A DNA stretch of 58,073 nucleotides, taken from sequence record PZ445420.1; one strand, given 5' to 3'. Shown here piece after piece: positions 49,039-53,335 of this stretch. The number at the start of each line of letters is the position of its first letter. Positions within the stretch are counted from its first letter, which is position 1. Below the pieces are notes generated by a model, which was not told where the DNA came from, ran no database searches, and saw only the letters and a list, made by a program, of their open reading frames with translations. Position numbers and translations under genes: made by a program. The stretch is from a phage.

Positions 49039-49659
49039 TCACGCTCCGAACTGATCAATGTATTCAATGAGTTCTTGCAATTCTTGCTGTAATTGCACAT
49101 TACCACTATTATTCGTCTGAAGTCTAACGAGGCGTTCCTTGATATGTGTAATGTGGTTAGCACCCACTCGACGCTTCTGTACATCACACCAGTGAACAAC
49201 ACCATCTTCAATATATGCACGACGCGCTTTACCACGCGGGTATCGCAACGGCCGAACTTCACACTTATCGTCCACCCACTTAAAGCCCAGGATCATAACA
49301 GCGTTACCTTCCGTATCAGGACACACGTCAAAACAACTGTTGAACCCTTTACTGCGCATGTACTTGTCGAGCGGAATCACACAATCCACCTCTAACAACC
49401 AGTACCCGAAGTAAATGTCAACAGTGAACATCATCCCCAGCATCGGAGCCGACCAGCACATATACATCCGCCCGTCATCCAACTTCTTGACCGCATTCGG
49501 CCGCAACACGAGGCCAGCCGCCTTCCACGCTTTGACCACATTACTTAGGCTGTCGTTATGCTGTTCTAATATGGCTACCGCTTTGGCGTACATTTCTTCG
49601 TCATAATCGAACATTTCCTGTACGTGTGCGTGCGTTATTTCAATATTACGATTCCGCAT
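49039..49659 (-). CDS. hypothetical protein, first gene of leftward block after non-coding region
   Basis: 206-aa ORF. Confidence 0.4.
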   Translation of the reverse strand: MRNRNIEITHAHVQEMFDYDEEMYAKAVAILEQHNDSLSNVVKAWKAAGLVLRPNAVKKLDDGRMYMCWSAPMLGMMFTVDIYFGYWLLEVDCVIPLDKYMRSKGFNSCFDVCPDTEGNAVMILGFKWVDDKCEVRPLRYPRGKARRAYIEDGVVHWCDVQKRRVGANHITHIKERLVRLQTNNSGNVQLQQELQELIEYIDQFGA

Positions 49660-49827
49660 AACCTCACCCTCGATAATAATAAATCGACTGATTTTGAAAT
49701 TCAGTTGCCAAGTTTTAATTTATGCGAAGTTTTTGCTATTTGCAATTGTGACATTTTGCGGTGTTTGTATGTGCAATGTTTTTGCTTTTGCAAAAATTAC
49801 AGCAGTCTGAAGGTGAGAAATTGTACA

Positions 49828-49966
49828 TTTATAAAGATCGGTGAAAAAATGCACAATTTATAAAGGCCCCGTAATACATAAAACGGCGAAGCGAAGTGTA
49901 TGAAAAATAAGGGAAAATTTTGAGGGTTTGGGGGAACGTGTGAATTTATAAATTTTATAAAGGGGT
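49828..49966. repeat. four copies of TTTATAAA(G) in AT-rich non-coding region
   Basis: TTTATAAAG at 49828, 49857 and 49955 plus TTTATAAA at 49945; adjacent GGGGTC x2 and CA-rich tract. Confidence 0.6.
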
Positions 49967-50611
49967 CTCGTAGGGGTCGTCAGTAGACAACTCAAAAACA
50001 AAAAATCTTTATACAATTTATATAAATACACACATACACACATTTTTTACCTTATTTTTCATGCACTTACCTCCTTTCATTTCGTATATTAAGCGTTAAT
50101 ACATGAGCAATATAACATATATTTGTTGCGCAACGACTGTGTGTTTTCTAACCAATCGAAAGATTGCTTTATATACGTCCGCGCGTCTAACACAAAAGAA
50201 AAGTAGATTGCAAGCGATTTTTGCTGAGGTAACTCTCGAAGTGAAAGCGATTTGCGAGTTTGAAATTTTGTAGCCCGAAAACGATTCTATTTTATGGTAT
50301 AAATGTCGGATTTTTCGGTGAAAGGTGGCTTTTCGGTGAGGTTGGGTGGCTGGGATCGGGGTAACGGGTAGCCCATAAAGCGAAAATAGCCGCGAAAACG
50401 GGGCACGCAGCGCGATTAAACGGTTGGATCGGTGCAAGGGTGGCGGTGAGGGGCGAAAATGCCGCAAAATCGCGTACAGGGAAGCAGGGAGCGGATCGCT
50501 GTAAGGGCGTATAAGGCGACTGAATTGGAGTCAATGGTAATGTACGGAAGAGGGATTCAGGTTCTTAGAGCGCGAATGGTGGAGTTACGGGTGAGGAATA
50601 TGTGGTCAGCA

Positions 50612-50635
50612 GGGTGGGGCGGGAGGTGGTGCGGG
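50612..50635 (+). other. G-quadruplex-capable motif (GGG-T-GGGG-C-GGG-N9-GGG) in purine-rich non-coding tract
   Basis: Direct reading; the + strand between about 50280 and 50640 is strongly G/A-rich. Confidence 0.3.
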
Positions 50636-50648
50636 TACAAAAACGAAA

Positions 50649-50675
50649 GCGCCCCGTTGGACTTCAACAGGGCGC
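50649..50675 (-). terminator. rho-independent terminator downstream of gene 50699..50956
   Basis: GCGCCC/GGGCGC stem with 15-nt loop; on minus strand followed by TTTCGTTTTTG. Confidence 0.45.
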
Positions 50676-50698
50676 GGATTGTAAAATGGTTTTAGAAG

Positions 50699-50956
50699 TT
50701 ATTTACAAGTTAATAATACCGCCCAGGTATTATCTGGAAGCGTACCAATTCCGCGGATTTTCAACTGGAGCGACTGGTGCTGCATGTTGTAGTTGTCTAG
50801 TAACTCCTGGGCCGCGGCAGCGGCGTTTGCTTCACTGTTGAGAGCGTAGTCGTTACTCGTTACCGCGCACATACCGAGGCCAACTGCTTTGAAGCGCAAA
50901 CCTTTGGATTGAGTCGGTGCGAGTGCTTTGACATGGATAGCTTGCATATTATTCAT
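50699..50956 (-). CDS. hypothetical protein
   Basis: 85-aa ORF. Confidence 0.35.
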   Translation of the reverse strand: MNNMQAIHVKALAPTQSKGLRFKAVGLGMCAVTSNDYALNSEANAAAAAQELLDNYNMQHQSLQLKIRGIGTLPDNTWAVLLTCK

Positions 50957-50976
50957 CTCCGTTACAATTTGAAAGG

Positions 50977-51234
50977 TTAGCAGTTTTTTAACAGGTTGAT
51001 GAAGCCCACCAGCGTGGACGCTGTTGCAACAAGGCGGCCCATAGTGTGTAGTTCCGCGTGAACTTTACCGTCGTCAAATACAGTTAAATAAACGTTAAGA
51101 CCATTGCAACGGACGCGATATTTGCGCGAGTTATTATTGAAAGTTTCTAATTCCGCAGTGATAGTCGCAAGGTTGGCTATACGTTTTCCAATAATGCGGC
51201 GAGTGATAGTGGACTGGTTTAATACTGTAGACAT
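50977..51234 (-). CDS. hypothetical protein, RIIGKR-motif family (paralog of 52137..52442)
   Basis: 85 aa; shares S-x-S-x-IT-[RK]-RIIGKR segment. Confidence 0.4.
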   Translation of the reverse strand: MSTVLNQSTITRRIIGKRIANLATITAELETFNNNSRKYRVRCNGLNVYLTVFDDGKVHAELHTMGRLVATASTLVGFINLLKNC

Positions 51235-51256
51235 AATAATTTCCTCAGTTAACTAT

Positions 51257-51295
51257 GCGGATTGCATATTATTGCCCACTGTTACTATGGGCAAT
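51257..51295. promoter_or_regulatory. conserved motif GCGGATTGC plus palindrome ATTGCCCA-N9-TGGGCAAT upstream of minus-strand gene
   Basis: Same architecture recurs at 52086-52120. Confidence 0.4.
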
Positions 51296-51316
51296 GTATA
51301 TGTCACTCAGCGATAA

Positions 51317-51535
51317 TTACTCCGGTAAAATTACAGTGACGTTAATATTTGCAATGCGAGCGCACTCGCGGAAACCTTTTACATAAGCATCCATTTCGTC
51401 ATAGGATGCGAATGTCACGTCCGGGACTGGTCCGTTGTTAATATTCACGCAATATTCGTGTTCATCCAGGTCAACCCAGCAATTCAGAACGATAGTTTCC
51501 ATATTATTTGCCCTCCGTATAATACAGACCCGCAA
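51317..51535 (-). CDS. hypothetical protein
   Basis: 72-aa ORF. Confidence 0.35.
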   Translation of the reverse strand: MRVCIIRRANNMETIVLNCWVDLDEHEYCVNINNGPVPDVTFASYDEMDAYVKGFRECARIANINVTVILPE

Positions 51536-51580
51536 CTATTGGAGCTCCGAACACCAAGAAAGCTAATAAATAGAACATAA

Positions 51581-52060
51581 TTAGTTACCACCTTTATTGT
51601 TGAGCCCGTTGAATTTACGCCATGCGTAGAATTCAATCGTTGCATTATTAATATTCCAACCATTAGCTTTCGCAAGGTCACGGACGTTACCAATAGTTGG
51701 CACACTATTAGGCAACATATTATCCAGGGCATTCCAAACGTCTGCGCATTTACCTTTAATTGGGCGGCGGACCCCGTTGCGCGTTTCGCTGCGCGTTTTA
51801 CCTTTGACGGGAGCGACCGGAGCTGGTTGTGTGGTCACTTCCACGACAGTCGCTTTATCAGCTTCAACCAGATCGTTAGCTGCCTTATTAACTGCGCTTT
51901 CGCTGAACCAGTAGCGGCCACCGTCTTCCAGCGGCTCCTGGTGAATAAAGCTATTTGCTGTCGCTGTGTCTACATCCAGAACCTTTTTCAAGGCACGGCG
52001 AGCGTTAGACATATTGGTGAAAAAGCGAGCATCTTTTGCTACGCGAGTGATAGTAACCAT
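51581..52060 (-). CDS. hypothetical protein (start at second ATG; GGAGA 7 nt upstream)
   Basis: about 159 aa; ORF track gives 51581..52075. Confidence 0.4.
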   Translation of the reverse strand: MVTITRVAKDARFFTNMSNARRALKKVLDVDTATANSFIHQEPLEDGGRYWFSESAVNKAANDLVEADKATVVEVTTQPAPVAPVKGKTRSETRNGVRRPIKGKCADVWNALDNMLPNSVPTIGNVRDLAKANGWNINNATIEFYAWRKFNGLNNKGGN

Positions 52061-52085
52061 TGTGAATATCTCCATGTTGTTCTAG

Positions 52086-52120
52086 CGGATTGCTAGTGGG
52101 AGCCCACTGTGACAATGGGC
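52086..52120. promoter_or_regulatory. second copy of GCGGATTGC plus GCCCA-N9-TGGGC palindrome
   Basis: GCGGATTGC 52086-52094; GCCCACTGTGACAATGGGC 52102-52120; overlapping AGTGGG/CCCACT hairpin. Confidence 0.4.
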
Positions 52121-52136
52121 AACCATTAGCACGCTA

Positions 52137-52442
52137 TTATTGTTGAATAGCTTTAGCTATCATTGTAATGAAGCAGAACACAGACCAAAGGCTATTCGCT
52201 TGGCATACTGGGCGACCATACATTACGCTATAAGAGCTGACATTGCCGTCCTCGTTAATGCGAATATATAACGCGGTGCTGGAATATTTTTCGTTGCCCG
52301 GGAGCATTACCAGATACTCGTCGAAATCCCAATCCCCGTCAACTTTTTCCGCAGTAAGGCCCAGTTGGTGCAGGCGCTTGCCAATAATGCGCTTAGTAAT
52401 TTGAGATTGGGACATGGAACGCGGTAAGTAGATAATGGACAT
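52137..52442 (-). CDS. hypothetical protein, RIIGKR-motif family (paralog of 50977..51234)
   Basis: 101 aa from internal ATG (MSIIYLP) with GGAGA RBS; ORF track extends to 52559. Confidence 0.4.
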   Translation of the reverse strand: MSIIYLPRSMSQSQITKRIIGKRLHQLGLTAEKVDGDWDFDEYLVMLPGNEKYSSTALYIRINEDGNVSSYSVMYGRPVCQANSLWSVFCFITMIAKAIQQ

Positions 52443-52630
52443 AATGCAATCTCCCTTCGGGTGAGGCGGGCGCGGAACCCGTGTCCCGCTTAAAAACCCC
52501 CTTAACCCTACGCAGTTATAGTATGACAACAGGGTATCAGATGCAACTATTATCTGCATTATTTTAGAACTTTTTTAGTTGTGTTTCATAATAATAACAT
52601 CCGGGACTATACGGTAGATGGTGTGCCGGA

Positions 52631-52696
52631 AATACCAGGTAGCGCGAGCGTGCTGAAAATACCAGGTAACAGCACGCGCCGAACATACCAGGTAGC
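52631..52696. repeat. three direct repeats ATACCAGGTA(A/G)C spaced 26-28 bp
   Basis: Copies at about 52631, 52659, 52685 in non-coding region. Confidence 0.6.
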
Positions 52697-52825
52697 ACAT
52701 ACATAGACAGCACATAGTGGGCAGGTGGATAGTAACAGATGCAATTATACTGGACAGTACAGTATAGTCATGTAATAGATAGCACACTAATCAAATAAAA
52801 AATAATAACGCGTGTAACAATAAAC

Positions 52826-52900
52826 AACGTTATAGTAGAGCGCGCAACAGTCACATGACGTAACAATCACCTCACTGACGATCACGGGACGTTATAGTAA
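52826..52900. repeat. two direct repeats ACGTTATAGTA about 61 bp apart
   Basis: Direct reading of non-coding region. Confidence 0.45.
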
Positions 52901-53047
52901 CGCCGCGGGGCGGCTCTTAGATCTCTGCCAAGGATTCATCGTTTGTAGATTATCTCGTCACTAGACACTTTATATCCTCACCTCACCTGTCCTATATTGT
53001 TCGTATAAAGTTAATTCCGTATGTAAATACTCGAGAGGAGATCTGTT

Positions 53048-53335
53048 ATGTTCGTTCTGGCTTTCAGTAGTGCAATATGGCTAGGTATCAACTGGATCCT
53101 TGCAATTATATTAGGTCTTGTGATCTGGTATGTACCGTTCATGCGTTACGCTGTTATCATTTCGCTTGTATATTTAGTTGTTAAACATTTCTTCGTATGG
53201 TGTGTATGCAATCCACAAGCTGCAAACATCAAACGTAACAAAGCAAACTTCTTTAGTGTACTTATTTTAGGTTCACTAATTGTGTACGCATGGCTGCTCG
53301 GTGCGGAGAACTTAGGCTGGTTCACGTTGCCTTAA
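53048..53335 (+). CDS. small integral membrane protein (three predicted TM segments)
   Basis: 95 aa, very hydrophobic; GAGGAG RBS; first gene of rightward block. Confidence 0.45.
   Translation: MFVLAFSSAIWLGINWILAIILGLVIWYVPFMRYAVIISLVYLVVKHFFVWCVCNPQAANIKRNKANFFSVLILGSLIVYAWLLGAENLGWFTLP

Follow-up and report, generated by a model that had tools for sequence, protein, structure and literature searches.

A conserved intercistronic hairpin, present twice in the early operon of Nonagvirus phages, as a candidate mRNA processing signal

Introduction

Two small minus-strand genes of an Escherichia phage are each preceded by a near-identical palindrome and a nine-nucleotide block. Are these two sites copies of one element, does the element act as DNA or as RNA, and what might it do for the genes next to it? 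A preliminary description of the locus read it as a shared operator or promoter. The DNA analysed here (58,073 nt, referred to as the window over its whole length) comes from Escherichia phage ChristophMerian (Bas19, Nonagvirus). The 159-aa product of gene 51581-52060 is identical to ChristophMerian bas19_0076, and the region is 91-96% identical to the Nonagvirus phages 9g, JenP1/P2/K1, HdSG1, FritzHoffmann and SE1. Nonagvirus and Seuratvirus of the BASEL collection belong to the Queuovirinae, a group of deazaguanine-modified siphophages. To our knowledge, nothing is known about the control of gene expression in the Queuovirinae; a search of the literature found neither a description of the element nor a Nonagvirus transcriptome.

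Results

Both sites lie within a leftward operon of small genes

The leftward operon is a run of small minus-strand genes (52137-52442, 51581-52060, a 24-codon ORF, 51317-51502, 50977-51234 and 50699-50947). The features of the operon that matter for the element are the following:

52560..53047, no strand assigned: divergent non-coding region, presumed origin of transcription of the leftward operon (BPROM annotations, promoter scan, 9g paper)
52137..52442, minus strand: RIIGKR paralogue 1 (101 aa, phrog_13865), the gene upstream of copy 1
51581..52060, minus strand: bas19_0076 (9g gp37 family, 159 aa), the conserved early gene 3' of the hairpin in every hairpin-carrying lineage
51317..51502, minus strand: the gene upstream of copy 2 in ChristophMerian (61 aa, phrog_5461)
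50977..51234, minus strand: RIIGKR paralogue 2 (85 aa, phrog_13865), the gene downstream of copy 2, a cassette that is present or absent among relatives
50649..50675, minus strand: intrinsic terminator-like hairpin of 11 pairs followed by a T-run, at the end of the leftward small-gene operon (terminator scan)

The authors of the 9g genome predicted two promoters in the equivalent of 52560-53047 (PMC4276943), and this promoter region upstream of the operon has its own 23-nt repeats. At the other end, the hairpin at 50649-50675 is strongly terminator-like and carries a terminator annotation in HdSG1 and SP8; about 1 kb of non-coding DNA follows it, and then late genes on the same strand. Because there is a single divergent promoter region and a single terminator, we infer one polycistronic early transcript that would run from about 52560-53047 to 50649-50675 and span both copies. 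The paralogy of the RIIGKR genes that had been proposed for this locus holds, as the products of 52137-52442 and 50977-51234 both fall into phrog_13865. The gp37/bas19_0076 family is present in more than 100 phage genomes. A model of gp37 gave weak HTH-like matches only, with a fold match below significance.

The window contains exactly two copies of the element

The sequence TTGCCCATnGTnACAGTGGGC-N8-GCAATCCGC occurs exactly twice in the 58 kb, on the minus (coding) strand at 52085-52122 and 51257-51294. Copy 1 consists of TTGCCCATTGTCACAGTGGGC (52102-52122), 8 nt and GCAATCCGC (52085-52093), copy 2 of TTGCCCATAGTAACAGTGGGC (51274-51294), 8 nt and GCAATCCGC (51257-51265). Each copy sits between an upstream stop codon and the next Shine-Dalgarno sequence. 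The placement given in the preliminary description, a two-part element upstream of the gene starts at 52060 and 51234, is thus correct for both copies, which lie 22-42 nt from these starts on the minus strand. The gap between palindrome and 9-mer had been given as about 16 bp; it is actually 8 bp, and the distance from start to start is 17.

A search with the 21-nt palindrome pattern at up to 3 mismatches returned these two sites only in the 58 kb, with 0.03 expected and 0 of 100 shuffles reaching 3. An unfiltered search of the whole 58-kb window with a covariance model of the element likewise found no further copies. The 9-mer GCAATCCGC by itself is not significant (15 matches at up to 1 mismatch against 10.1 expected). 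The motif search in the genome and in related phages that had been proposed as a check of the earlier claim thus yielded two copies in the window, and the element is present at homologous positions in relatives.

When folded as RNA, the parts of the two copies are as follows:

52083..52136, minus strand: copy 1 (type B), full extended hairpin, UAGCG-UGCUA-a-UGG-uu-(GCCCAUUG uca CAGUGGGC)-uc-CCA-c-UAGCA-auc-CGCUA
52102..52120, minus strand: copy 1 apical stem-loop (the palindrome of the preliminary description), GCCCAUUG-UCA-CAGUGGGC, with the conserved U·G wobble
52085..52093, minus strand: copy 1 GCAATCCGC 'box', contributing to the 3' side of the lower stem (UAGCA-auc-CGCUA)
51250..51319, minus strand: copy 2 (type A), extended hairpin as folded in ChristophMerian, with a conserved core at 51260-51308
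51274..51292, minus strand: copy 2 apical stem-loop, GCCCAU-AGUAACA-GUGGGC, the stem extending to AUUGCCCAU/GUGGGCAAU (51271-51295)
51257..51265, minus strand: copy 2 GCAATCCGC 'box', of which CAAUC pairs with GAGUG (51304-51308) with one G×A mismatch

The extended hairpin of copy 1 begins 1 nt past the stop codon of 52137-52442 and stops 23 nt short of the ATG of 51581-52060. Its helix comprises 21 bp (5+5+3+8), with a folding energy of -30 kcal/mol (z = -3.4) and a covariance model score of 87 bits. Copy 2 begins at the stop codon of 51317-51502 and has its 3' end 15 nt short of the ATG of 50977-51234; its helix of 19-27 bp folds with -26.4 kcal/mol (z = -3.15). Its core (51260-51308) reads GAGUG-a-CAUAU-ac-(AUUGCCCAU aguaaca GUGGGCAAU)-a-AUAUG-CAAUC. 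In most relatives the box region of copy 2 is CACUU, which pairs fully with the upstream strand.

Sequence variation among relatives follows the pairing of a folded strand

Among 46 distinct copies, the third position of the stem is C-G in 37, G-C in 5, A-U in 3 and U-A in 1. The U·G wobble beside it is invariant, apart from Seurat, in which it is shifted: the 3' arm is unchanged there, and two changes in the 5' arm (C to U and U to C) move the wobble with pairing kept. The loop of the 46 copies ranges from 3 to 7 nt and its sequence is free to vary; within Nonagvirus, all variation of the palindrome falls on loop positions. Below the 2×2 pyrimidine internal loop of type B, UGG/CCA is replaced by CAG/CUG in L123 and in the mosaic L125, and the closing pair of copy 2 is A-U, G-C or U-A among relatives.

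The lower stems change in the same paired manner. Their partner strands among relatives are AUAGU/ACUAU, AGUUUGUUA/UAGCAAAUU, GAGUG/CACUU, GAUUG/CAAUC and GGGUG/CAUCC, and where the copy 1 box has become ACUAUC or AAAUUC, the upstream strand shows the complementary changes AUAGU and AGUUUG. The lower stems of PSTCR4/7, Seurat and Vid5 share no sequence with that of ChristophMerian and retain pairing. In the alignment of type B (16 sequences) 97.9% of the cells are paired and 3 pairs have changed on both sides; for type A (14 sequences) the values are 93.2% and 6 pairs. As a control, the 3' partners were slid by 1-3 columns; 30-51% of the cells then paired, and double changes all but disappeared. 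Over 50 relatives, the helix around the apical loop has a median length of 25 bp, against 13 bp with shuffled flanks; it is an irregular helix of about 20-27 bp that includes flanks which are not conserved but complementary.

We rate the support from covariation as good, not overwhelming, because few independent events or lineages stand behind each double change. Folding of the sense and the antisense strand is nearly equal (mean difference -0.95 kcal/mol). Because the folding energy is strand-symmetric, the strand was assigned only from the orientation of the genes and the G·U pairs. Taken together, covariation, a varying loop and complementary flanks are the signatures expected of a folded single strand, which would most simply be the mRNA.

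A model of two separate hairpins, the apical one and a small one (CUAGC-loop-GCUAG or UAUGC-loop-GCAUA), was rejected. In ChristophMerian the copy 1 box can alternatively be drawn as the apex of such a hairpin (CUAGC-AAUCC-GCUAG), which competes for the 3' strand of the lower stem. The small hairpin has a stem without variation inside either type, is disrupted in the chimeric copy of FritzHoffmann and does not occur in L077, PSTCR or Seurat, and its 'loop' covaries with upstream sequence. For these reasons the extended helix is preferred.

Sequence comparison does not support a promoter, terminator or DNA operator as the conserved function

A sigma-70 scan listed no sense-strand promoter at either copy. 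A sigma-70 promoter as the conserved function was rejected, since the copy 1 sequence TTGCCC-17-CCACTA has 0 of 6 matches in the -10 hexamer and the type B homologues likewise have no -10. In copy 2, TTGCCC-17-TAATAT matches TTGACA/TATAAT at 8 of 12 positions, below the threshold of the scan; copy 2 and its relatives do resemble a mediocre sigma-70 promoter, and copy 2 may carry a weak one. The first base of this '-10' is T, C or A in step with its stem partner (pair 15:39), and in L126 and L127 other bases, which preserve pairing, stand in place of the '-35' TTG. The spacing of the promoter-like hexamers varies from 16 to 19 across genera and tracks the size of the hairpin, with 19 in Seurat, Vid5 and one PSTCR copy.

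Such a weak promoter could belong to a DNA cassette resembling the promoter-early stem-loop (PeSL) of T4-type phages, in which a weak sigma-70 early promoter would give each downstream gene its own start and the stem-loop would attenuate transcription from upstream. PeSL stem-loops overlap the -35 or -10, hold G-T pairs, lie between stop codon and Shine-Dalgarno sequence and mark indel junctions (PMC2839356), and the edges of the present element are cassette junctions as well, with a chimeric copy in FritzHoffmann; the copy 2 hexamers also have the optimal spacing. We nevertheless consider this reading improbable. It is at odds with copy 1 and all type B homologues, which have no -10, and with the bases of '-10' and '-35' that change together with their pairing partners. 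The spacer of 19 nt in three lineages, a promoter match that stays below the scan threshold, a stem that makes a poor terminator with no T-run behind it, and two copies per genome against about 50 PeSLs argue in the same direction.

A palindromic DNA operator for a dimeric repressor, for example the TetR-like product of 9g_00036, would account for a near-perfect palindrome core of 19-23 bp occurring twice in one operon, and symmetric double changes would also be expected after a change in repressor specificity. A dimeric operator has a fixed distance between its half-sites; here the spacing of the arms follows the 3-7 nt loop (18-20 nt in type B, 19-25 nt across genera), a variation that only a hairpin would tolerate. 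The conserved T/C asymmetry between the arms would be a wobble in RNA but an asymmetric site in DNA, and the complementarity reaches into flanks without sequence conservation. ChristophMerian has neither 9g_00035 nor 9g_00036 and yet keeps both elements, which moreover lie inside the operon and far from the promoter region with its 23-nt repeats. An operator function is therefore very improbable. Of the shared cis element that the preliminary description had proposed, one part stands: the two sites are copies of one element, kept at homologous positions. The part that made it a DNA operator or promoter does not agree with the covariation of the stem and the missing -10 of copy 1. We conclude that the two sites are copies of one cis-acting element that very probably affects the expression of the downstream genes.

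Three further candidates were set aside. A promoter-like match on the plus strand (51288-51317, TGGGCA-18-GATAAT), antisense to copy 2, was treated as a chance match, because its -10 lies in a ChristophMerian-specific junction that is absent from relatives. Inspection by eye for a sigma-54 promoter (TGG-N10-GCA over the 3' arm and the box) found that only the GG/GC core fits, that the other -24/-12 positions do not, and that the 5' arm would be unexplained. Neither copy was found by the terminator scan as an intrinsic terminator, and the tails behind the stems, UCCCACUA and AAUAAUAU, contain no T-run.

The hairpin is conserved across genera together with the gp37 family gene

Every Nonagvirus examined carries the same two copies. 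Type B (copy 1, continued by YYCCACUAGCA…CGCUAGAAC) always precedes a gene of the gp37 family, and type A (copy 2, with GAGUGACAUAUAC before and AAUAAUAUGCA after it) precedes whichever gene is next. The hairpin is found upstream of the bas19_0076-family gene in Nonagvirus, Klebsiella Queuovirinae, Seuratvirus, Craquatrovirus and Vid5. In distant phages whose gp37 homologue is 35-68% identical, it lies 25-45 nt upstream of that homologue (L115, L123, L124, L137-L142, Klebsiella Kpn2-P2 and K9PH25C2, Providencia PSTCR4/7 of Craquatrovirus, Seurat/VogelGryff of Seuratvirus and Pantoea Vid5). A pattern scan of viral contigs yielded, for the most part, isolated chance hits in unrelated contigs, and from it only loci related to the window were kept. 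Phages with a clear promoter directly before the gp37 homologue (Alteromonas R7M, Vibrio, Pseudomonas, L116/L117/L141) have another 5'-UTR hairpin instead, in some cases with a GCAAU(A)C(C)GC apex.

Between lineages the element is 71-89% identical, compared with 62-70% for the gp37 coding sequence and 47-54% for the upstream gene. For the apical stem and the blocks CUAAUGG, CCACUAGCA and CGCUAGAAC, conservation extends to the sequence and is not confined to structure. The box shared by the two copies is another matter. Both ChristophMerian copies do contain the 9-mer that had been called conserved. In copy 2, GCAATCCGC occurs only in ChristophMerian, SP8, SE1 and the metagenomic relatives L118 and L121, and most relatives have GCACTTCGC at this place, others GCACTCCGC, GCATCCCGC or further variants. 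Because it is confined to these few relatives, the 'shared box' is lineage-specific.

The sequence conservation of the stem and the three blocks could point to an RNA binding site of a phage protein. The hairpin might be an autoregulatory translational operator for bas19_0076, or a nut- or put-like antitermination site at which leftward transcription would become able to read past the operon terminator and on towards the co-oriented late genes beyond it. The co-occurrence with a gp37-family gene across at least five genera, the apical stem and the three blocks kept in sequence, and the weakly HTH-like model of gp37 are in line with such a site, although the fold match of gp37 stays below significance. 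Antitermination would also suit the layout at the end of the operon, with a strong terminator, a non-coding stretch of roughly 1 kb and late genes of the same strand, and the authors of the 9g genome describe the switch from early to late expression as unexplained (PMC4276943). The loop of the element varies freely, unlike those of boxB-N or coat-protein operators, and L124 has different stems (GCGC and GCCC) in the two copies of one genome. Two copies stand in one operon, copy 2 precedes unrelated genes, and the Shine-Dalgarno sequence lies outside the structure. A nut-like site is further contradicted by CGCUAGAAC, which matches lambda boxA (CGCUCUUA) at 5 of 9 positions and lies in the reverse order to lambda. 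A protein-binding site of either kind is unlikely in our view. Its wider form is more doubtful still, namely a previously undescribed cis-regulatory RNA family that works with the gp37/bas19_0076 protein, possibly by nut/put-like or autoregulatory control of read-through at the terminator, as part of the early-to-late switch of the Queuovirinae.

Gene cassettes are exchanged at the edges of the element

In most relatives 9g_00036 and 9g_00035 lie between the homologue of 51317-51502 and copy 2; both are missing in ChristophMerian, and the end of this indel coincides exactly with the left edge of copy 2. Behind copy 2, the RIIGKR gene is present or absent, with its ATG as the junction. Copy 1 of FritzHoffmann joins a left part of type A to a right part of type B, the crossover falling within the shared GCAATCCGC, and L077 and L115 contain remnant 5' ends of a MQAIHVK gene beside an inserted gene. 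A location at cassette junctions and recombination between copies, as known from PeSLs, are thus also found for this element. The shared sequence secondarily is, to judge from these comparisons, a recombination junction for gene cassettes.

Would this suffice to explain the element without any dedicated function in expression, as a selfish or passive junction (single-stranded DNA or a cruciform) that is maintained by cassette exchange? The indels of 9g_00035/36, the RIIGKR gene and other cassettes that end at the element, the FritzHoffmann crossover in the 9-mer, the remnant ORF starts that come after the element in L077 and L115, and the strand-symmetric folding energy would all be compatible with it. 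Conservation above that of neighbouring coding sequence across genera and a fixed position relative to the gp37 start are not what it predicts, and compensatory changes with a conserved G·U indicate selection on a folded strand and not mere homology. We regard this explanation as very unlikely.

Discussion

The feature is real and non-random. It is a conserved structured element that had gone without annotation, most simply an RNA of a generally familiar kind, its strand assigned from gene orientation and wobble pairs. A scan of 49500-53200 against Rfam 15 up to E = 10 gave no match on the element and three chance-level matches elsewhere.

We propose, with moderate confidence, that it is a cis-acting signal for mRNA processing and stability of the type of the T7 early RNase III sites. 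This proposal draws on the resemblance to T7 in helix size, in the internal loop, in an apical stem conserved between copies above a variable lower stem, in a loop free to vary, in the location between cistrons of a host-transcribed early operon and in the distance to the following start codon. A helix of about two turns (at least 20 bp, with an internal loop), as in RNase III sites, is present, and a loop that is free in sequence and length suits an enzyme that measures a helix better than a protein that reads a loop.

In the proposed mechanism, each copy would fold into a stem-loop within the polycistronic early transcript of the leftward operon, in the interval that follows one gene's stop codon and at 15-25 nt from the next Shine-Dalgarno sequence. 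Its GC-rich apical stem of 7-10 bp (GCNCAU…GUGNGC with the fixed U·G) would be carried by a small internal loop, below which comes the variable lower stem. The polycistronic RNA would be cut here by host RNase III or, next to the hairpin, by RNase E. The variable upstream message would keep a protective hairpin at its 3' end after the cut, and a defined 5' end would arise on the message downstream, chiefly on that of bas19_0076. As a speculation, the 3' strand might refold after cleavage into the CUAGC-loop-GCUAG hairpin at the new 5' end. Cleavage and stabilisation at the hairpins are deduced here from the structure and its surroundings. The conservation of the apical stem in sequence exceeds the known requirements of RNase III and hints at a sequence-specific partner; together with the linkage to gp37, it may leave room for a specific protein.

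The element is the best-conserved non-coding feature of the first-expressed operon of the Queuovirinae and evolves more slowly than the adjacent genes. It shows compensatory changes across at least five genera and is tied to a widespread early gene. It offers an easily mutated handle on early RNA processing, on the expression of bas19_0076 and on the exchange of small cassettes between phages, and it is a candidate for a new Rfam family. If it is a plain RNase III site, it would extend the T7 paradigm to an unrelated group of siphophages, a result that would be useful and unsurprising.

Comparison with known systems

The PeSL of T4-type phages combines a sigma-70 promoter of consensus strength with an effective terminator and occurs about 50 times per genome (Arbiol et al. 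2010, PMC2839356). Like the present element it is a repeated intergenic motif between a stop codon and the next Shine-Dalgarno sequence, with a G·T-containing stem-loop that overlaps hexamers like -35 and -10. PeSLs also lie at the borders of inserted, deleted or replaced small genes without assigned function, and chimeric copies indicate recombination (PMC2839356). The present element differs in that type B has no -10, type A is weak with covarying key bases, no T-run follows and there are two copies. It was not assigned to the T4-type PeSL class, which is marked by a strong promoter, a terminator and many copies in hyperplastic regions.

Intercistronic stabiliser hairpins, such as the REP in malE-malF and those of the puf operon, are similarly stable; the present hairpin could likewise block 3' exonucleases and set the levels of neighbouring genes differently. 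Unlike it, such hairpins generally lack sequence conservation between genera and have no link to one particular gene downstream.

In phage lambda, boxA with the consensus CGCUCUUA precedes boxB, whose 5-bp stem bears a conserved GNRA-like pentaloop read by N. The likeness to nutL/nutR and the RNase III site of the N leader consists in a GC-closed hairpin (GCCC…GGGC or GCGC…GCGC) with a conserved single-stranded block nearby. As with nutL and nutR, its place is near the beginning of a leftward early operon, and a small, conserved, regulator-like early gene comes after it. In contrast to the nut sites, the stem measures 7-10 bp instead of 5 bp, the loop is variable, the hairpin precedes the box, the match to boxA is poor and both copies belong to one operon. 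On account of stem length, variable loop, reversed order and the 5/9 match of CGCUAGAAC, a lambda-type nut site was rejected.

The RNase III sites of the T7 early (class I) mRNA are R0.3, R0.5, R1, R1.1 and R1.3. The early intergenic regions containing them were folded in the same way as the present element, with cleavage coordinates that are reportedly those of Dunn and Studier 1983. They gave helices of 20-25 bp, located 27-35 nt before the next start, which contain a conserved upper stem of 9-10 bp and an internal loop. The two groups have no similarity in sequence, and the T7 sites are cleaved, whereas cleavage of the present element is proposed. T7 has five sites in its early region, or ten in its genome, in contrast to two copies here, and its internal loop is larger and asymmetric, compared with the small symmetric one here (2×2 pyrimidines in type B). 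A further difference is the conservation of the present element across genera together with a particular downstream gene. The two have in common several copies in one early operon that is transcribed by the host RNA polymerase, and an intergenic position 25-45 nt ahead of the next start codon. In each, a GC-rich upper stem of 8-10 bp that is conserved between copies is followed by an internal loop and then by a lower stem that varies, for a total of 20-25 bp, and the sequence of the loop is apparently unimportant.

The gp37-family protein and the adjoining mini-protein

Homologues of bas19_0076 (51581-52060, minus strand), the gp37-family protein encoded behind copy 1 of the hairpin element, were found in 117 phage records. 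Their range covers Queuovirinae, Craquatrovirus and Vidquintavirus as well as Vibrio, Pseudomonas, Alteromonas and Sphingomonas phages. The protein matched no Pfam domain. In its AlphaFold model a disordered linker (residues 71-87) connects two domains, of which the C-terminal one, a three-helix domain, is weakly HTH-like. One record labels the protein 'transcriptional activator', a name given without evidence. Directly 3' of the gene lies a conserved short ORF:

51504-51578, minus strand, 24 codons (MFYLLAFLVFGAPIVAGLYYTEGK)

Its product is a hydrophobic mini-protein. The ORF is also present in the related loci L115 and L117 and in the Klebsiella phages, and its sole annotation is in FritzHoffmann, as bas20_0075.

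Variation in the leader and the hairpin element

Where gp37 homologues are promoter-proximal, the hairpin in their 5' UTR differs from the hairpin element:

L131 (Alteromonas phage R7M), 1925-1975, alternative 5' UTR hairpin
L116, L117 and L141, approximately 40-60 nt upstream of the gp37 homologue, alternative 5' UTR hairpin

The apex of this hairpin reads GCAAUACCGC or GCAAUCGC and is near the GCAAUCCGC box in sequence, a resemblance that could be coincidental or stem from a shared origin of the gp37 leader.

Only this phage, SP8, SE1 and the related loci L118 and L121 have GCAATCCGC as the copy 2 box (51257-51265), which makes it identical to the box of copy 1. In copy 2 this sequence leaves the lower stem with a G×A mismatch (-20.8 vs -25.2 kcal/mol), and it may have arisen by micro-conversion from copy 1. 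Short remnant ORFs (MQDIHVKALALL…, MQAIHVKAL*) were detected in two related loci:

L077, 11737-11790, remnant ORF
L115, 3062-3105, remnant ORF

Each is a partial duplicate of the MQAIHVK gene, covering its 5' end, and adjoins an inserted gene of 83 aa. In L115, L077 and JenP1 an HNH endonuclease gene lies just outside the operon. The remnant ORFs and the neighbouring endonuclease gene are traces of cassette insertion.

Operon borders and genome ends

The divergent promoter region contains three direct repeats:

52622-52697, three 23-nt repeats, family D2, consensus CGTGCYGAAAATACCAGGTARCA, spacing 26-27 bp

They resemble operator or iteron sites and have no relation to the hairpin element. At the opposite border, an Rfam match to CRISPR-DR9 on the operon terminator (50646-50685, plus strand; 16 bits, E = 8.6) scored no better than chance; the terminator is not a CRISPR repeat. 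Between this terminator and the first late gene, approximately 1 kb holds no convincing ORF and contains nested inverted repeats:

49039-49659, first late gene
49660-50650, stretch with no convincing ORF
49894-49917/50045-50068, inverted repeat, 92% complementarity
49938-49962/50007-50031, inverted repeat

The stretch is a candidate site for a packaging signal, a late promoter or the boundary of a terminal repeat.

The records of HdSG1 and HdK1 carry the entire leftward small-gene operon, terminator included, at both genome ends, which places it within a direct terminal repeat of approximately 3.4 kb. The operon coordinates are:

Window, ~50650-53050
L002, 745-2888
L143, 2178-4321 (HdSG1 record 60977-63120)

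The 9g paper, in contrast, placed a physical end of the genome within the divergent region (PMC4276943). The location of the HdSG1 and HdK1 operon in a direct terminal repeat resembles that of the pre-early genes of T5, which are likewise carried in the terminal repeat.
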